From assembly GCA_963663405.2 (NCBI GenBank), contig CAXXSM010000021.1, forward strand, positions 1 through 64,000: a DNA stretch of 64,000 nucleotides, written 5' to 3'. How positions within the stretch are numbered: position 1 is the stretch's first letter; every line of letters starts with the position of its first letter. This DNA is from a bacterium (lineage in GTDB: Bacteria; Hinthialibacterota; Hinthialibacteria; Hinthialibacterales; Hinthialibacteraceae). The position numbers were made by a program, and so were the translations under genes. Of this stretch, positions 26,823 through 33,505 are shown piece by piece. The notes beneath the pieces were generated by a model. That model saw nothing but the letters and a program-made list of their open reading frames with translations. It had not been told where the DNA came from and did not search any database.

Positions 26823-27812
26823 ATGAGTTTCGAACAGGAACGAAGCGCCGCAATCGAAGCGGTCCAAAAGGCTTGCCAGCTCTGTCAAACCGTCCAGGCG
26901 GAGCTGGTGACCGAAGAGACCGTCGCTAAAAAAGATAAATCACCTGTCACCATCGCCGATTTTGGCGCTCAGGCGATCGTAAATCAACACTTGCTGAACG
27001 TGTTTCCAAACGATCCGATTGTCGCGGAAGAAGACGCGCATATCCTTCGCGAACCGGACGCGGCGCTGATGAAAGAGCGGATCATCCATCATGTCCACAC
27101 CTTCTGGCCCGGCGCCAGCGAGGAACAAATCCTCATTTCCATTGATCGAGGTAACTATGAGGGCGGTCCGCAGGGACGGCATTGGACCTTGGATCCCATC
27201 GATGGCACAAAAGGATTCATCCGGGGCGACCAATACGCTATCGCATTAGGATTGATCGAAAACGGGGAAGTGGTTTTAGGAGCGCTTGGTTGTCCCAATC
27301 TCCCACTGCAAGCGGACAAACCGGATGGCGCGAAAGGCTGTATTCTGATCGCGGTAAAAGGACAGGGCGCCTTCATCCGGTCTCTTGAGGATGATTCCGA
27401 AACACCGATACATGTCTCGGAAATCGCTGACGTCTCGCAGGCCTCGTTCTGTGAATCGGTCGAATCGGGCCATACTTCCCACAGCCGTTCCTCCCAGATC
27501 GCCGAAGCGTTGGGCGTCACCGCTCCCCCATATCGTATCGACAGTCAGTGCAAGTACGCGGCGGTGGCGCGCGGTGACGCGTCGATTTATCTGCGCCTGC
27601 CCACTAGCCCAACCTATCAGGAAAAAATATGGGATCACGCCGCCGGTTCGATTGTCGTAAAAGAAGCGGGCGGCAAGGTGACGGATATTCATGGCGCTCC
27701 CCTTAATTTCGCGCGGGGAAAAACCTTCGAACCCAATACGGGCATCGTCGCCACATGCGGGTCGTTTCATTCCCAAGTGATCGACGCGGTGAAGAGGTCA
27801 TACGAACAATGA
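26823..27812 (+). CDS. 3'(2'),5'-bisphosphate nucleotidase, HAL2/SAL1-like
   Basis: KKDKSPVTIADF, EED, LDPIDGTKGF, GCPNLP, DSQCKY, EKIWDHAAG. Confidence 0.9.
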   Translation: MSFEQERSAAIEAVQKACQLCQTVQAELVTEETVAKKDKSPVTIADFGAQAIVNQHLLNVFPNDPIVAEEDAHILREPDAALMKERIIHHVHTFWPGASEEQILISIDRGNYEGGPQGRHWTLDPIDGTKGFIRGDQYAIALGLIENGEVVLGALGCPNLPLQADKPDGAKGCILIAVKGQGAFIRSLEDDSETPIHVSEIADVSQASFCESVESGHTSHSRSSQIAEALGVTAPPYRIDSQCKYAAVARGDASIYLRLPTSPTYQEKIWDHAAGSIVVKEAGGKVTDIHGAPLNFARGKTFEPNTGIVATCGSFHSQVIDAVKRSYEQ

Positions 27813-29413
27813 ACGAAGTAAAAACAATGTCCAATTTTGATTGGGTGATCCGGAACGCGAACGTGATCGATGGAACCGGCAAACCCCCTTTCCAAGCCGA
27901 TTTGGGAATTACTGGGGATACGATCCACGCGGTGGATACACTCAATGAACAACAGGGCCGGTCGGTATTGGACGCGGCGGGGCTTTGTATCGCTCCTGGT
28001 TTCATCGATATTCACACTCACTCAGACGGTGTAATCTTCACCTGCCCCACCGCCGATAGCCGCGTGCGGCAAGGCGTGACGACGGAAATCACTGGTAACT
28101 GCGGCTTTTCCGCTGCGCCTCTGTCCGGCCCATCCGCGGAAGAGCGGCGCAAAGAATTGCTGAAAGAGACAGACGCGCCGGCCACGTGGACGGATGTGGC
28201 TTCCTATTTCAAACAATGGGAAGAGACAGGCGCTTCTCTCAATCACGCTTTGCTTTTAGGGCAAGGAACCATCCGGCAGAATATCGCCGGTTTGGAAGAT
28301 CGCCCGTTGACGGATGAAGAACATAAAATCCTGATTCAAACCATCGAAGAAGGAATGCGGCAAGGCGCCGTGGGAATCTCAACGGGATTGGAATACACCC
28401 CCGGCTGTTACACTTCAACAGACGAGATTGTATCGATCGCGCGAATCGCCGCCAAGTATGATGGATTGTACGCGACTCACATGCGTGATGAAGAGGATGG
28501 ATTGCTGGAAGCGATCGCCGAAGCGATCGACATCGGCCGCCGGGCGGAAATCCCCGTGCAGATCTCTCATTTCAAAGCCTGTGGGCGCGCGAATTGGGAC
28601 AAGCAGGGAAAAGCCATTGAATTGATCGAAACGGCCCGAAAAAGTGGCGTGGACGTGATGGCCGACGCGTATCCCTACACGGCTTTTTCAACCGATCTTA
28701 CAATTCTGCTGCCCACATGGGCGAGAGAGGGTGGAGCGGAAGCGATCATCAAACGGCTGTATGATCCAACCGATCGAATGCGTATCTTGAAAGAACTGGA
28801 TCAAAACGTGCAAAGTTCCACCGGCGATTACAGCCGGATCATCATCGGCTCCGTTCAGTCGAGTCAAAACCAGTATGCCGTTGGCAAGACCGCTGAAGAG
28901 ATCGCTGCATTGCAAAACGAAGATCCCGCCGCGACGATCGCTCGTCTGATCGAGGAAGAAAAAGCGGATGTCTCTTTCATCGGCCATGGTATGAGTGAGG
29001 AAAATGTCGAGCGAGTTCTGTCCCACCCTCAAGTGATGATCGGTTCGGACGGTTCAAGTATGAAACCCGTAGGGAAAACCGCCGAAACCAAGCCACATCC
29101 CCGCTCGTATGGAACCTTCGCCCGTGTTCTCGGTTATTACTCCCGCGAGCGCGGCCTCTTCGATCTCCCCACGGCCGTCAAAAAAATGACCAGCATGCCC
29201 GCCAGCCGCGTCGGTATGAAAGACCGGGGCCGCATCGCGCCAGGAATGAAAGCTGACCTAACGCTCTTCGATCCAAAAACCGTCATCGATCGAGCTACAT
29301 TCCAAAATCCCCACCAATACCCCACCGGAATCTCCCACGTCATGGTCAACGGACAATTTGTCATCAAAGATGGAAAACACACCAACGCGCGGCCGGGGCG
29401 GGTGCTTGTTTGA
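27809..29413 (+). CDS. N-acyl-D-amino-acid deacylase (amidohydrolase)
   Basis: PGFIDIHTHSD, GNCG, THMRDE, QISHFK, IGSD, HPRSYGTF. Confidence 0.9.
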   Translation: MNEVKTMSNFDWVIRNANVIDGTGKPPFQADLGITGDTIHAVDTLNEQQGRSVLDAAGLCIAPGFIDIHTHSDGVIFTCPTADSRVRQGVTTEITGNCGFSAAPLSGPSAEERRKELLKETDAPATWTDVASYFKQWEETGASLNHALLLGQGTIRQNIAGLEDRPLTDEEHKILIQTIEEGMRQGAVGISTGLEYTPGCYTSTDEIVSIARIAAKYDGLYATHMRDEEDGLLEAIAEAIDIGRRAEIPVQISHFKACGRANWDKQGKAIELIETARKSGVDVMADAYPYTAFSTDLTILLPTWAREGGAEAIIKRLYDPTDRMRILKELDQNVQSSTGDYSRIIIGSVQSSQNQYAVGKTAEEIAALQNEDPAATIARLIEEEKADVSFIGHGMSEENVERVLSHPQVMIGSDGSSMKPVGKTAETKPHPRSYGTFARVLGYYSRERGLFDLPTAVKKMTSMPASRVGMKDRGRIAPGMKADLTLFDPKTVIDRATFQNPHQYPTGISHVMVNGQFVIKDGKHTNARPGRVLV

Positions 29414-29420
29414 TCCGTAA

Positions 29421-29621
29421 TTGTCTGAACCCTGATTCTAAAGATTAAAGGATTCCCATGATTTAATAATCAAGTGAATCAAGCAAATCAGGTGAATCAC
29501 GGTTCAGACAAAAAGAGATCAAGTGGGTAATTGTCAGAATCCTGATTCTAAGGATTAAAAGATTTCCATGATTTAATAATCAAGTGAATCAAGCAAATCA
29601 GGCGAATCACGGTTCAGACAA
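29421..29621. repeat. Two tandem 91-bp palindromic units (29421-29511, 29531-29621; period 110)
   Basis: TTGTC(T/A)GAA(C/T)CCTGATT ... AATCACGGTTCAGACAA; four GATT then four AATC at about 9-nt spacing. Confidence 0.92.
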
Positions 29622-29641
29622 AAGAGGATTAAAAGATTCTC

Positions 29642-30061
29642 ATGTTAAAAAATAATAGTGACATGTACAAAGATATCACTGGCAAGATCATTGGCTGTGC
29701 AATGACTGTACACAGGATTCTTGGCAATGGTTTTCAGGAGGTTATTTATCAGCGCGCATTGAAGATAGAAATGGAATACCAGAAGTTGGATTTTGAGCGC
29801 GAAAAAGAAATAGAGGTGTTTTATCGGGGGCAAAGAATTGGTGAGCGTAGAGTCGACTTTTTTGTTGAAGGGAAAATAATGGTTGAGTTGAAAGCCATAG
29901 TCGCTCTTGAGGATGTTCATCTAGCACAAGCAATGAATTATCTTGAAGCGTATAAAATGGAAATTGGTTTATTGATTAATTTCGGCGCCAAAAACCTGCA
30001 ATACAAACGTATTCATAATAATGCGCTTCTTAATCGTCTGAACCCTGATTCAAAGGATTAA
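29642..30061 (+). CDS. GxxExxY protein (PD-(D/E)XK nuclease fold)
   Basis: LGNGFQEVIYQRAL (GxxExxY), RVDFFV..IMVELKA, Q..NYL, GLLINFG. Confidence 0.92.
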   Translation: MLKNNSDMYKDITGKIIGCAMTVHRILGNGFQEVIYQRALKIEMEYQKLDFEREKEIEVFYRGQRIGERRVDFFVEGKIMVELKAIVALEDVHLAQAMNYLEAYKMEIGLLINFGAKNLQYKRIHNNALLNRLNPDSKD

Positions 30062-30260
30062 AGGATTTTCATGATTTTAAAATCAAGAGAATCAAGTTAA
30101 TCAGGCGAATCACGGTTCAGACAAAAGAGATCGAGTGTGTGATCGTCAGAACCCTGATGAAAAAGGATTAAAGGATTTTCATGATTACAAATCAAGTGAA
30201 TCAAGCAAATCAGGTAAAGGCCGCGCCAGCGGGCTGGCTTTTAAATCAAGGTTCAGACAA
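30034..30260. repeat. Two tandem palindromic units (30034-30124; 30143-30260 with 27-bp insert)
   Basis: Same consensus and same linker (AAGAGATC.AGTG) as the upstream pair. Confidence 0.9.
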
Positions 30261-30321
30261 AAAGAGATCAAGTCAATCATCATCAAATCATTAAGAAAAC
30301 ATGGTTCCGATTCAAAAGTTG

Positions 30322-30350
30322 TTGACAAGGTTCTATATTATCTTTATCAT
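30322..30350 (+). promoter_or_regulatory. Sigma70-type promoter TTGACA-N17-TATCAT
   Basis: Near-consensus hexamers, about 85 nt upstream of pilin ATG 30436. Confidence 0.55.
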
Positions 30351-30435
30351 TAAATCGATCATCGTAAAGAAATGGGGGAAAATTCCACGTTTTTCTAATC
30401 CTTTATTGGTAAAAAAAGAAAGCGGAATCTGTCTA

Positions 30436-31023
30436 ATGAATCCTAAACAATGCGCATTCACTTTGATTGAACTGCTGATCGTTGTCGCCATCATTGGGAT
30501 CTTGGCCGCCATTGCTGTCCCGAATTTTTTGAACGCGCAGTTGCGCGCGAAAATCGCCAAAGCGGAATCCGAAATTCGTAACATTGGTCTTGCGCTCGAG
30601 TCGTACCGGTTGGATCGAAATTATTACCCGCCCACAATGAATGAGAACGGCCAATGGAGAGAAATAAACAGTCACCGGCTGTACCCATTGACAACCCCCA
30701 TCGCCTACATGTCATCCATACCCATAGACCCATTCCTCTATGGTCCTCCGGGAACTCGGATCAATGACGAGCAAAGCACAAATTATGACACTTATGATTA
30801 CGTGGATATCTGGTCCCATTTTGCGTACGCTGGGATGACCATTGTTACACTGCCGTTTCGTTGTTGCGAATGGAAAGTAACGAGTTCTGGGCCGGATGCG
30901 ACGAATTCATGGGGCCGGGCGTATACATTCGATGTCTCGAACGGGCTTCGTAGCTGGGGGGATATTATCCGCACAGGCCCTCGTTCATCCCTGCCATGTG
31001 AAGATGAATATGTCGGGAAATGA
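30436..31023 (+). CDS. Type IV pilin/pseudopilin (N-methylation domain) protein
   Basis: A-FTLIELLIVVAIIGILAAIAVPNFLNAQ; LTTPIAY, DPF, SSGPD, FDVSNGLRSWGDI. Confidence 0.9.
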   Translation: MNPKQCAFTLIELLIVVAIIGILAAIAVPNFLNAQLRAKIAKAESEIRNIGLALESYRLDRNYYPPTMNENGQWREINSHRLYPLTTPIAYMSSIPIDPFLYGPPGTRINDEQSTNYDTYDYVDIWSHFAYAGMTIVTLPFRCCEWKVTSSGPDATNSWGRAYTFDVSNGLRSWGDIIRTGPRSSLPCEDEYVGK

Positions 31024-31039
31024 ATGATATGTTCGCAAC

Positions 31040-31080
31040 GGGCGCCAAGGGAAAGGCTTTTCCTTCTCTTGTGTTAATTC
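31040..31080. repeat. Half copy of family-B palindromic element
   Basis: GGGCGCCAAGGGAAAGGCTTTTCCTTCTCTTGTGTTAATTC resembles the left arm of 1960-2074. Confidence 0.55.
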
Positions 31081-31119
31081 GATAATCCTAATCTACGCTT
31101 CTCTAATCAAGTAATCCCA

Positions 31120-33505
31120 TCACGATCCAACCGCCTTAAGAATATAACTCTCGCCAGCGTCCGTTCGAAATTGGATCACACCCTTTTCGGGTGATTTGAC
31201 CGATATCGTTTTCCCGCCTGATGTGACGCGCAGGGGGACGCGGCTTCGGATTTGGACAGGCCAACCGAGTTTAGAGCGAAGTGTTGCGCGGGTGAGTTCG
31301 CCGTCTTTCCATTCGATATCCACTTCGAATCCGCCGCGGGCGCATAGACCGTGGATCGAGCCATCCGGCCACGCTTTGGGCAGTGCGGGCAACAGGTGAA
31401 TTTCACCGGCGTGGCTTTGCAGCAGCATTTCGGCGATTCCCGCCGTCCCGCCGTAATTGCCATCGATCTGGAAGGGGGGATGGTTGTCGAAGAGGTTTGT
31501 AAATGTCGATTTCCGAAGAAGCGCGAGGATGTTTTCATGAGCCAGATCGCCTTCTTCAAGCCGGGCCCAAAAGTTAATAATCCAAGCGCGGCTCCAGCCG
31601 GTATGACCTCCGCCGTTTTCGAGCCTGTATTCCATCGATTTTCGCGCCGCCGCCGCCATCTTGGGCGTTTCCCGGAGAGTGATCTGTTTTCCCGGATGAA
31701 GAGCGAAGAGATGTGAGAGATGACGGTGCCCCGGTTCCGGTTCCTCGAATTCTTCCGTCCATTCCATCAACCGCCCATCAGAACCAATTGTGGGAATCGC
31801 TAATCGATCCCGCATTGTTTTAAACCTGCTGCACGAACTCATCATCAATACTAAGAACGCGCGCCGCATCCAGACAATTCGTGAATAGATCCCACACGAT
31901 CTCCTGATCCATCGCGCATCCCATCGTCAGATACGAGACAACTCCGTCTTTGGCGCGGAACTGGTTTTCCGGAGATGTCGAAGGGCCGGAGACGAGTTTC
32001 CCGGTTTGGGGATCTTCGGTGAGAAAATCGAGGAAAAATTCGGCGCCTTCTTTCATGATGGGATACCCGCGCTGACGCAGGAACTCAATATCTCCCGTAT
32101 ATAAATAATGCTCCCATAAATGCTGACAGCTCCATGCGGCTCCCAGCGGCCACATACCATAAACCGCGTTTCCGATGGGTGAGGTCCAATACCACGCGTC
32201 GGTCGTATGGTGGGCGGTGAAGCCCCGGCAGCCATAGACATCCCGCGCGGTTTTCCGTCCACGCGGCCGCAGATTGTCGATCAAGTCAAAAAAGGGCTCA
32301 TGACATTCCGAAAGATTGCACATTTCGGCGGGCCAATAATTCATCTGGATATTGATATTAATGTGGTAATCCGCGTTCCACGGCGCGTCGATATGCTCGC
32401 TCCACAATCCCTGAAGGTTCGACGCCATACACCCAGGGCGGGAACAGCTGATTAGAAGATATCGTCCAAATTGGAAATACATCGCGATCAACTGTGGATC
32501 ATCCGCGCCTTCTTTTACTAATTGCAGCCGCTGGTCTACCGGTAAATCTAACTTGTCCTCTCCACCTAAATCGAATTTCACGCGGTGGAACAACCGCTGA
32601 TGTTCTTTGATATGCGCTTCCCGCAATGCTTTGTAAGTTTTTTTTGCAACCGCTTTTAATTCTCTTTTACTAATCGAATCGGGATCATCCCCTCGGTAAT
32701 CCGTAGCCGCCGTCAGGAACAAGGTAACCGCTCCGGCGTTTTTGATATGCAATCCAGATTCATCGGCGTATACCGTTCCATCATCTAGAACGGCTTGCAG
32801 CCGGGTCGTGAATTTTACACCTGCGTGTTGTTCTCCCTGATCGGCTTGCCCACGCATGATCAACAGGTCCGAACTATTCGGTCTAACCTCAGCGTGTTCG
32901 GACCGTGATAGATTGACATCGAATGTAAGGTAATTCGGCTTGTCGCAAGTCAAGCGTATCACAATCGCTTGATCCACCGGGCTGGAGAAGACTTCCCTTG
33001 TAAAAAGAGCGTCTCCTTGGCGATATATAACTTTCGCAATGGCGGTATCCAGATTTAATTCCCGCCGGTAATCTTCTATCCCCTTGTCATCTTTGAACAT
33101 AATCCACAGATCACCAAGTGTTTGATAACTGCGGGGGCTGATCCTCTCGCTCATGAATTCATCCTGCATGATCTTCTGGCCTTCGGCATATTTACCTTTG
33201 AAGATCAACCGGCGCGCTTCTACTAGATAGATGTACGCTCCTTTGCGATCCCGCTCCAGAGGGTGTCCCGCCCAGATTGTATCTTCATTGAGTTGAATTC
33301 GTTCGGTTTTTGTTCCCCCGAACACCATCGCTCCCAGCCGTCCATTCCCGATAGGAAGCGCTTCAACCCATTCAGATGCGGGTTGATTGTACCATAGTGT
33401 CAGTTCTGTTGATTCGCTTGAAAATGTGGAATGGGCCGGTATCCCATTAAAGGCAATGATAGATAACACTGTAACGAAAGATGAAACCATTGAACGATTC
33501 AACAT
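31120..33505 (-). CDS. GH95 alpha-L-fucosidase (single extra T near 31822 splits the ORF)
   Basis: [36 protein letters not shown]; HRHLSHL, GWSRAW, PFQIDGN. Confidence 0.9.

Follow-up and report, generated by a model that had tools for sequence, protein, structure and literature searches.

A GxxExxY nuclease gene between periodic hairpin arms: a proposed selfish cassette of a kind not described before

The locus analyzed here consists of an array of periodic hairpins around a GxxExxY gene. It lies in the window, by which we mean the whole stretch of 64,000 nucleotides that was analyzed. The window corresponds to contig C21 in a draft genome (G000) that measures 8.4 Mb and is 82% complete. The first-pass annotation had described four repeat units, two on each side of a lone AT-rich GxxExxY gene of 139 aa that sits between a deacylase and a pilin gene. 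This array is confirmed: the units are four hairpins of about 105 nt each, they have the reported positions and boundaries, and the neighboring ORFs are of the amidohydrolase family and the prepilin type (Table 1). All four units share the boundaries T(T/C)GTC(T/A)GAA(C/T)C...GGTTCAGACAA. In unit 1 the word GATT is found at 29434/43/51/60 and AATC at 29468/77/86/95, with a step of 8-9 nt, and the linkers within the two doublets measure 19 and 18 nt, all as first reported. The doublets had also been read as direct repeats around the gene, and a repeat search indeed returns one direct-repeat family with four copies (100/91/81/62% identity, spacing 110, 503 and 109) together with the matching inverted arms. 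The left arm of unit 3 supplies the last 10 or so codons of the gene. At its other end, a short sequence that overlaps the start of the gene is the remnant of a fifth left arm, the cassette's own, which contains the start codon. This assignment is based on a repeat family (D2, copy 29625-29661, 73%) and on a match against relatives in which the gene lies between a left and a right arm. An Rfam scan of positions 28500-31500 at E<=1 gave two chance matches to miRNA families and nothing else.

Table 1. Positions of the genes, hairpin units and associated features at the locus
Feature	Positions	Strand	Details and basis
Amidohydrolase-family gene, upstream neighbor	27755-29413
AT-rich island containing the entire array	29350..30400		GC 0.35-0.40, compared with 0.51-0.57 outside
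Hairpin unit 1	29417..29525	none	29421-29511 bounded by TTGTCTGAACC...GGTTCAGACAA; termini GTCTGAACC/GGTTCAGAC; sequence, repeats, profile, folding
Hairpin unit 2	29527..29629	none	29531-29621, starts with TTGTCAGAATC; sequence, repeats, profile, folding
Left-arm relic	29625-29644	+	two GATT periods and cATG, which is the start codon; terminal part missing
GxxExxY / PDDEXK_3 nuclease gene, 139 aa	29642..30061	+	family models, alignment, structure model
Hairpin unit 3	30031..30137	none	30034-30124, starts with TCGTCTGAACC; sequence, repeats, profile, folding
Hairpin unit 4	30139..30273	none	30143-30260, starts with TCGTCAGAACC; sequence, repeats, profile, folding
Nested G+C-rich mini-hairpin, 27 nt	about 30214-30240, right arm of unit 4	+	resembles a terminator when read on the + strand
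Prepilin-type gene, downstream neighbor	start about 30436

The hairpins are not confined to this locus. An nhmmer profile made from the four units finds 84 matches in the genome at E<=1e-3, and these come down to 59 hairpin copies, partial ones and three of a related GGAT subfamily included, once overlaps (mostly the opposite strand of the palindrome) are removed. The 59 copies stand against one cognate gene. They are mostly single and dispersed, and those beyond the window contig are intergenic without exception (55/55). Relatives of the 27-nt mini-hairpin are present in either arm of many of the other copies. The 26 full-length copies reveal which positions pair. The terminal 9 bp as well as the TGATT/AATCA and GATT/AATC blocks are paired in 92-100% of cases, the spacers between these blocks in 8-31%, and position 10 is a conserved A.A mismatch. 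This bears out the earlier remark that only a periodic skeleton base-pairs. Since the spacers are non-complementary, arrays of protein sites fit better than a structure that is selected merely to pair.

When folded as RNA, every unit forms on both strands a ladder of 4-6-bp helices with small internal loops. The z-scores lie between -3.5 and -10, and no unit is matched on either strand by any of the 200 shuffles. This good folding on both strands would suit an element that acts at the RNA level in the manner of a 23S rRNA intervening sequence. Its arms would pair in a read-through transcript, so that a long irregular stem loops out the cargo mRNA. The stem would then be processed, for example by RNase III, the enzyme that processes 23S rRNA intervening sequences, or it would join an upstream stop to a downstream start and spare the host operon. 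The nuclease itself would be selfish cargo or would have a cellular role unrelated to the arms. We regard such an RNA-level element as unlikely, since the spacers remain unpaired and one mismatch is conserved. The solo hairpins speak against it as well. For 39 copies both neighboring genes reach 100 aa or more. These genes are tandem at 27 copies, divergent at 8 and convergent at 4, and relative to the tandem genes the hairpin has no preferred orientation (13 same, 14 opposite).

The protein belongs to a widespread family. It matches PF13366 (E 6e-39, 133 bits with a cut-off of 22) and TIGR04256, 'GxxExxY protein' (E 9e-41, 139 bits with a cut-off of 35). PF13366 is its sole Pfam match, and neither an HUH/Y1 transposase (PF01797) nor a DDE domain is found in it. 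Residues G30, E33, Y36, D72, E82 and K84 are invariant across 38 aligned sequences. The AF2 model (pLDDT 91.5) is matched best in Foldseek by Cas4 SSO0001 (E 1e-4, TM 0.52), followed by Cas4 Pcal_0546, lambda exonuclease and the AdnAB/AddAB nuclease complexes, with Hjc and RecU lower. The PADLOC Cas4 models match weakly (E 0.003-0.006), and a sequence search of the PDB gave no match. According to this model the window protein has a PD-(D/E)XK fold with a conserved nuclease active site, and the invariant D72, E82 and K84 correspond to the D..ELK site that the first-pass annotation gave for GxxExxY proteins. Members of the family occur in 23 of the 41 genomes sampled. PMC3424549, the single survey of the family to turn up, lists its function as 'Unknown', and the literature searched offered no other statement on function.

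The first-pass annotation had asked whether periodic palindromes flank GxxExxY genes generally, and they do. An alignment of the three intact paralogs from the host genome was used to search one genome per species. This gave 560 relatives, of which the best 80 loci were kept. These represent Chloroflexi, Bacteroidota, Cyanobacteria, Ignavibacteria, Nitrospirae, Calditrichia and others. Protein identity is 57-79% across the phyla, or 61-79% when only the best matched segment is counted, and the ORF is intact in 76 of the 80 cases. Inverted repeats were scored by local alignment of 220 nt upstream with the reverse complement of 220 nt downstream, and the threshold was the 99th percentile (26) of 404 equally spaced, shifted control windows at the same loci. 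The score exceeds this threshold in 64/80 loci (median 34.5 vs 18). The flanks are periodic as well: 4-mers recur 1016 times at lag 9 and 638 times at lag 8, compared with 243-406 at lags 5-7 and 10-11, and in the control windows only codon periodicity is seen. More distant clades gave the same picture. Of 25 such loci (20 from relatives, three others from the host genome and two from G022), 20 lie above the same threshold, with a recurrence of 326 at lag 9 vs about 60, and their arms have other sequences with the same design. A strict regular expression finds a terminus within 300 nt of the gene in 58 of the 80 close loci. The architecture is left arm, gene, right arm in 17 loci, a gene between complete hairpins as in the window in 5, mixed in 8 and partial in 28, and the expression does not recognize it in the remaining 22. 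The layout resembling REP/RAYT systems that had been proposed from the window alone is real and family-wide.

The arms differ from clade to clade together with the protein. The host genome contains four GxxExxY loci, each beside a periodic palindrome of its own sequence family, and the GATT repeat is missing from the other three. In one of these the gene lies between inverted arms (C142), in another it follows two tandem hairpins (C93), and in the third a broken gene is preceded by a GGAT-type hairpin (C92). In G042, which also holds one of the loci of our set (L060), there are 17 family matches. The 15 intact paralogs that we examined there share 40-72% identity with the paralog closest to them, and the arm sequence is particular to each. 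Near-identical gene copies were not seen among the paralogs of this genome, and recent bursts of the gene-bearing form are therefore not evident. Among the close-clade loci, 65 have flanks of sufficient length. Over their 2080 pairs the similarity of the inner flank is correlated with protein identity (Spearman 0.33), and that of an outer flank 350-560 nt farther from the gene is not (0.04); because of the dependence between pairs, p-values of this correlation are overstated. The expected co-variation of flank sequence with protein clade is therefore present within single genomes and across the set. Gene and arms form one conserved, family-wide and horizontally mobile cassette, the parts of which are inherited together.

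The hairpins also occur without the gene, and this has to be weighed against the pairing just described. The hairpin type is present in 6 genomes among 41 relatives. A search with TIGR04256 found no match in four hairpin-bearing genomes (G024, G025, G020 and G015), the first of which has 35 arm matches at 93% completeness, and in G022 the hairpins are accompanied by GxxExxY genes of other clades only. When metagenome loci were chosen by the arm motif alone, 7 of 80 held a GxxExxY gene. Other cargo is found as well: hairpins in G024 flank toxin-antitoxin pairs, and one arm pair encloses an unrelated ORF of 170 aa. Small genes bracketed by hairpins, in the window as in G024, could suggest integron-like cassettes, in which the hairpins are attC-like folded sites for a tyrosine recombinase and the gene is ordinary cargo. 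The imperfect palindromes, their attC-like length, the conserved terminal words and the conserved unpaired position would fit. We consider this highly improbable, however, because the integron integrase model TIGR02249 reaches at best 86 bits with a cut-off of 265 in five genomes (G000, G020, G022, G024 and G025), the copies are mostly single and dispersed, and in 17/80 loci the gene lies between half-arms and not beside whole sites.

Some of the gene-less copies are associated with another mobile element. Of the 55 solo copies in the host genome, 24 adjoin the ends of an ISL3-type miniature element, 12 of them on both sides and 12 on one side, and about 15 hairpin copies form the center of an element of about 265 nt. 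The outer inverted repeat of this element occurs 76 times in the genome and is also found where a resident ISL3 transposase gene (C64) ends; this gene shares the outer repeat of the composite and not the hairpin termini. Two of the composite copies are abutted by perfect direct repeats of 8 bp. Among 11 copies compared for a shared word outside the composite ends, 2 have an abutting word of 8 nt, 8 have 4-6 nt and 1 has none, counts that are uncalibrated by shuffles. Composite copies free of a hairpin were not found in this genome and other subfamilies of the element have unrelated interiors, so no junction of hairpin insertion can be read, and a target-site duplication for the hairpin itself is not established. 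Gene-less hairpins outnumber the cassettes and can hitch-hike inside another element. The possibility raised earlier that the repeats track with an IS elsewhere holds in part, for these 24 copies. They do not track with a RAYT: the RAYT-like gene of the host genome has different REPs and the IS200-like gene has other repeats as well; the PF01797 genes of this genome (C38 and C71) are flanked by other repeats.

These observations would be expected if the hairpins were independent REP- or MITE-like miniature elements that are moved by host or IS enzymes, with a nuclease that does not act on them. GxxExxY genes would then be mere frequent passengers or neighbors, and genes and hairpins would adjoin because both build up in the same tolerant intergenic spots. 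The hairpins in genomes that gave no match to the family, the ISL3-type repeats beside solo copies with the two perfect 8-bp duplications, the few genes among loci chosen by the arm motif and the presence of other cargo all favor this view. We nevertheless doubt it. The pairing of arm and protein is clade-specific across phyla and inside single genomes, most loci in each clade examined have arms that adjoin the gene directly, and the period of the arms differs between cargo families (see below). The original interpretation is upheld in part. The layout and the clade co-variation hold; recognition, cutting or spreading of the hairpins by the nuclease is a conjecture, against which stand the 59 copies with one cognate gene, the copies at ISL3-type ends, the hairpins without a gene and the 7/80 metagenome loci.

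The genomic sites of the cassettes tell something about their mobility, for which the AT-rich composition of the island and the 57-79% protein identity across phyla also speak. Both neighboring genes are co-oriented with the GxxExxY gene in 51/68 loci. Restriction-modification genes (type I, type III or type IIG) are neighbors in 18 of the first 40 loci, for which 73 neighbor ORFs were scanned out of 148 in all 80 loci, and at one locus two cassettes lie within a single type I operon. In 9 of the 39 loci with a recognized right terminus, a long ORF has its ATG 0-6 nt past this terminus. The co-orientation with both neighbors and these start codons would also be expected from the RNA-level element considered above. 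One site was followed through a genus sample around G041 with 29 loci (one more from an unpublished genome was left out), 19 of which have both ruvX and an O-methyltransferase ortholog. The interval between these two genes holds a GxxExxY cassette in 8/19, with three arm subfamilies and both orientations, an unrelated gene of about 270 aa in 4/19, and is empty with a gap of 33 nt in 1/19. The remaining intervals contain other sequence, and two of them keep a gene-less remnant of a right arm. This mixture of cassettes, empty site and remnants shows repeated gain and loss at a hot spot. For the window itself no orthologous locus was found in 25 relatives, in which the closest amidohydrolase homologs are at most 42% identical. 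Contigs from public runs of two studies contain a joint of 29586 to 30244 that skips 657 nt, in two runs of one sample. The joint may be a gene-less allele or a misplacement; its left side is about 87% alike and lies in repeats. Among viral contigs only two relatives were found.

A comparison with a different cargo is informative with respect to the function of the arms. The host genome contains a gene of the PF05635 family (23S_rRNA_IVP, a four-helix-bundle protein unrelated to GxxExxY) that also lies between inverted periodic arms. Among the 41 relatives 26 PF05635 loci were listed, one of which was dropped for a short flank, and 15 of the 25 have inverted arms above the threshold, compared with 0/48 controls. 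The period here is 7 nt (recurrence 469 at lag 7, 419 at lag 14 and 123 at lag 9). The period follows the cargo, 9 or 7 nt, and we infer that the arms are best explained as site arrays for the encoded protein. PF05635 proteins are named after ORFs of 23S rRNA intervening sequences, and their analogous arms could be taken in favor of an RNA-level element; however, a generic RNA stem does not explain a cargo-specific period.

We favor the reading that gene and arms are a mobile cassette, that the Cas4-like nuclease recognizes its own arms and that solo hairpins are gene-less derivatives, and we give it an even chance of being right. The window locus would be one copy of a widespread selfish cassette that is made up of a gene for a small Cas4/RecB-like PD-(D/E)XK nuclease and two flanking inverted arms. 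Each arm consists of 3-5 short repeats in 9-nt phase, with a conserved stem at the terminus, and the arms are inherited and transferred together with the gene. The cassette would land between co-oriented host genes, often within restriction-modification operons, and read-through probably accounts for its transcription. Several nuclease molecules might bind the phased repeats of their own arms and join the two ends, and cleavage at or near the terminal stems would allow the cassette to be moved or copied. Arm binding, cleavage near the termini and mobility driven by the nuclease are conjectural parts of this reading. One objection is that a PD-(D/E)XK protein alone is not known to carry out strand transfer (compare TnsA/TnsB of Tn7). 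Gene-less hairpins would be deletion derivatives in which left and right arm are fused; they would persist and could be spread by other means, and in the host genome an ISL3-type miniature element carries some. In the window, the outer part of the cassette's own left arm is gone, and the cassette would now lie between two doublets of solo hairpins.

A wider and rather less probable version, which we propose only tentatively, would unite the GxxExxY and the four-helix-bundle (S23p) cassettes as two branches of one class of prokaryotic selfish elements that has gone unrecognized. Such an element would consist of a mini-gene and inverted arrays of short tandem repeats with a period (9 or 7 nt) set by the protein, and the protein would coat the arms as a phased multimer. 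The GxxExxY nuclease would cut the terminal stems and move or copy the cassette, and classical 23S rRNA intervening sequences would be a special case that has landed in rDNA. If this were true, the GxxExxY nuclease would be a transposase-like enzyme of a new type.

The clade-specific partner sequence provides a concrete substrate and with it the first testable function for the large GxxExxY/PDDEXK_3 family. If the nuclease acts on the arms, this would be a type of mobile element that uses a new class of enzyme and a mode of recognition that is programmable and repeat-phased. Seen as a cassette, the gene no longer surprises inside restriction-modification and other operons, and the family is linked with the long-standing question of why 23S rRNA intervening sequences have ORFs. 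For annotation it is relevant that many spurious ORF tails of low complexity, as well as breaks in assemblies, are due to the arms.

No earlier account of such arms was found in Rfam or in the full-text literature searched, in which subscription journals are thinly covered, and the data suggest a selfish cassette of a kind not described before. Likenesses to several known systems exist. In integron cassettes, too, small and mostly promoterless genes stand beside imperfect palindromes that measure about 60-140 nt and have conserved ends. In contrast to these, the five genomes searched gave no integron integrase, the copies are dispersed and the palindrome often encloses the gene. In 23S rRNA intervening sequences (S23p/PF05635) a small ORF is found in the loop of a long stem, and the arms around PF05635 genes are periodic. 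However, the window cassette sits between protein-coding genes, its cargo is a nuclease (PF13366) and its period is 9 and not 7 nt. Cas4/RecB-family nucleases are the best structural matches and share the D...ExK active site. GxxExxY proteins differ from Cas4 in their small size of about 125-140 aa, and none of the cysteines is invariant in 38 sequences, so that there is no conserved four-Cys cluster, the hallmark of the Cas4 Fe-S site. A cas neighborhood was found neither in the window nor among the Pfam-scanned neighbors of the first 40 loci.

Parallels are found among transposable elements as well. With MITEs and transposons bounded by terminal inverted repeats, the cassette shares arms that correspond to such repeats, and the solo hairpins resemble derivatives that arise by internal deletion. 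Unlike these transposons it is without a DDE transposase, and the clear 8-bp duplications belong only to the ISL3-type carrier. The REP/RAYT systems ('REPtrons') likewise combine a small nuclease-type gene with inverted palindromic flanks and many dispersed, intergenic copies that are free of the gene, and in both cases different pairs of gene and repeat can share one genome. There are, however, differences. The enzyme here is a PD-(D/E)XK protein and not an HUH/Y1 transposase, and REPs are short, near-perfect palindromes, whereas the repeats described here are ladders of 90-110 nt with a 9-nt period and unpaired spacers. The layout resembles that of REP/RAYT systems and of MITEs, with another class of enzyme and another design of the repeat.

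A family of miniature elements of about 200-300 nt is dispersed in the draft genome G000, with one example listed in the table below and about 37 further places, and the GATT hairpin, the palindrome of 9-nt period that makes up the array in the window, is the centre of one of its subfamilies. The terminal inverted repeat of these elements, of the GGTTCATCCGGTAAGTGAGTAC type, has 76 matches in the genome and is also borne by the end of the resident ISL3 transposase gene on contig C64. At two copies of the element perfect 8-bp direct repeats are found, and PF01610 has 32 matches in G000.

The hairpin arms can themselves carry a nested G+C-rich mini-palindrome. Together with variant forms it recurs in many of the other G000 hairpins, where it may occupy either arm and face either way, and it resembles a tiny mobile insert or a terminator module. 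Hairpins of the GATT type also flank other genes. In the compared genome G024, which has no GxxExxY match, pairs of them surround two gene pairs (L116, L117): one is VapBC-like, and the other is small and resembles DUF4258/DUF2283 in sequence.

Feature locations in the window and elsewhere in G000
Feature	Location	Detail
Mini-palindrome	window 30214-30240	27 nt, G+C-rich, followed by a T run; nested in a GATT hairpin arm
Sigma-70-like promoter match	window 30322-30350	strong; TTGACA, 17 nt, TATCAT; 11 of 12
Miniature element	C118:139230-139495	
GxxExxY cassette site (L031)	C142:122400-124800	
PF05635 gene with inverted arms	C132:119068-119382	
Weak PF05635 match and following ORF (L115)	C100:33340-36633	
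238-aa open frames, two examples	C118:28585-29109; C27:7294-7818	
RAYT-like Y1 transposase gene	C71:25149-25463	

The GxxExxY cassette, that is the nuclease gene between inverted periodic arms, is directly preceded on C142 by a 310-aa ORF that resembles, in sequence, the final part of a DNA methyltransferase. An extra left-arm-like repeat lies within this ORF and is translated as TAEDAESAEK; therefore, arm sequence can turn into coding sequence. A hot spot in the genus sample around genome G041 lies between ruvX and an O-methyltransferase gene; this intergenic site holds GxxExxY cassettes, an unrelated gene of about 270 aa, other palindromic repeats, or nothing (L299-L328).

Inverted arms, here with a 7-nt period, also bracket four-helix-bundle PF05635 genes, on C132 and at 25 loci of relatives (L348-L376); the arm threshold was exceeded in 15 of these 25 loci versus 0 of 48 controls. 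On C100 an ORF bearing motifs like those of reverse transcriptases comes after a weak, Avd-like PF05635 match, and this locus may be a diversity-generating retroelement.

The promoter match in the window is located just past the array, ahead of the prepilin-type gene. This pilin-type gene adjoins hairpins whose termini contain CGTCTGAA (G000 consensus, for example, AATCGTCTGAACC), the core motif of the DNA uptake sequence of Neisseria. That uptake sequence is the subject of a paper (PMC3868556). The likeness beside such a gene is probably a coincidence.

Identical 238-aa open frames occur at about 14 places in G000, all matching a tyrosine-recombinase model with equal score; they are probably parts of an insertion element present in multiple copies. 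As for the REP/RAYT system, the RAYT-like Y1 transposase gene of G000 has its own inverted REP-like flanks, which are unrelated to the GATT hairpins.
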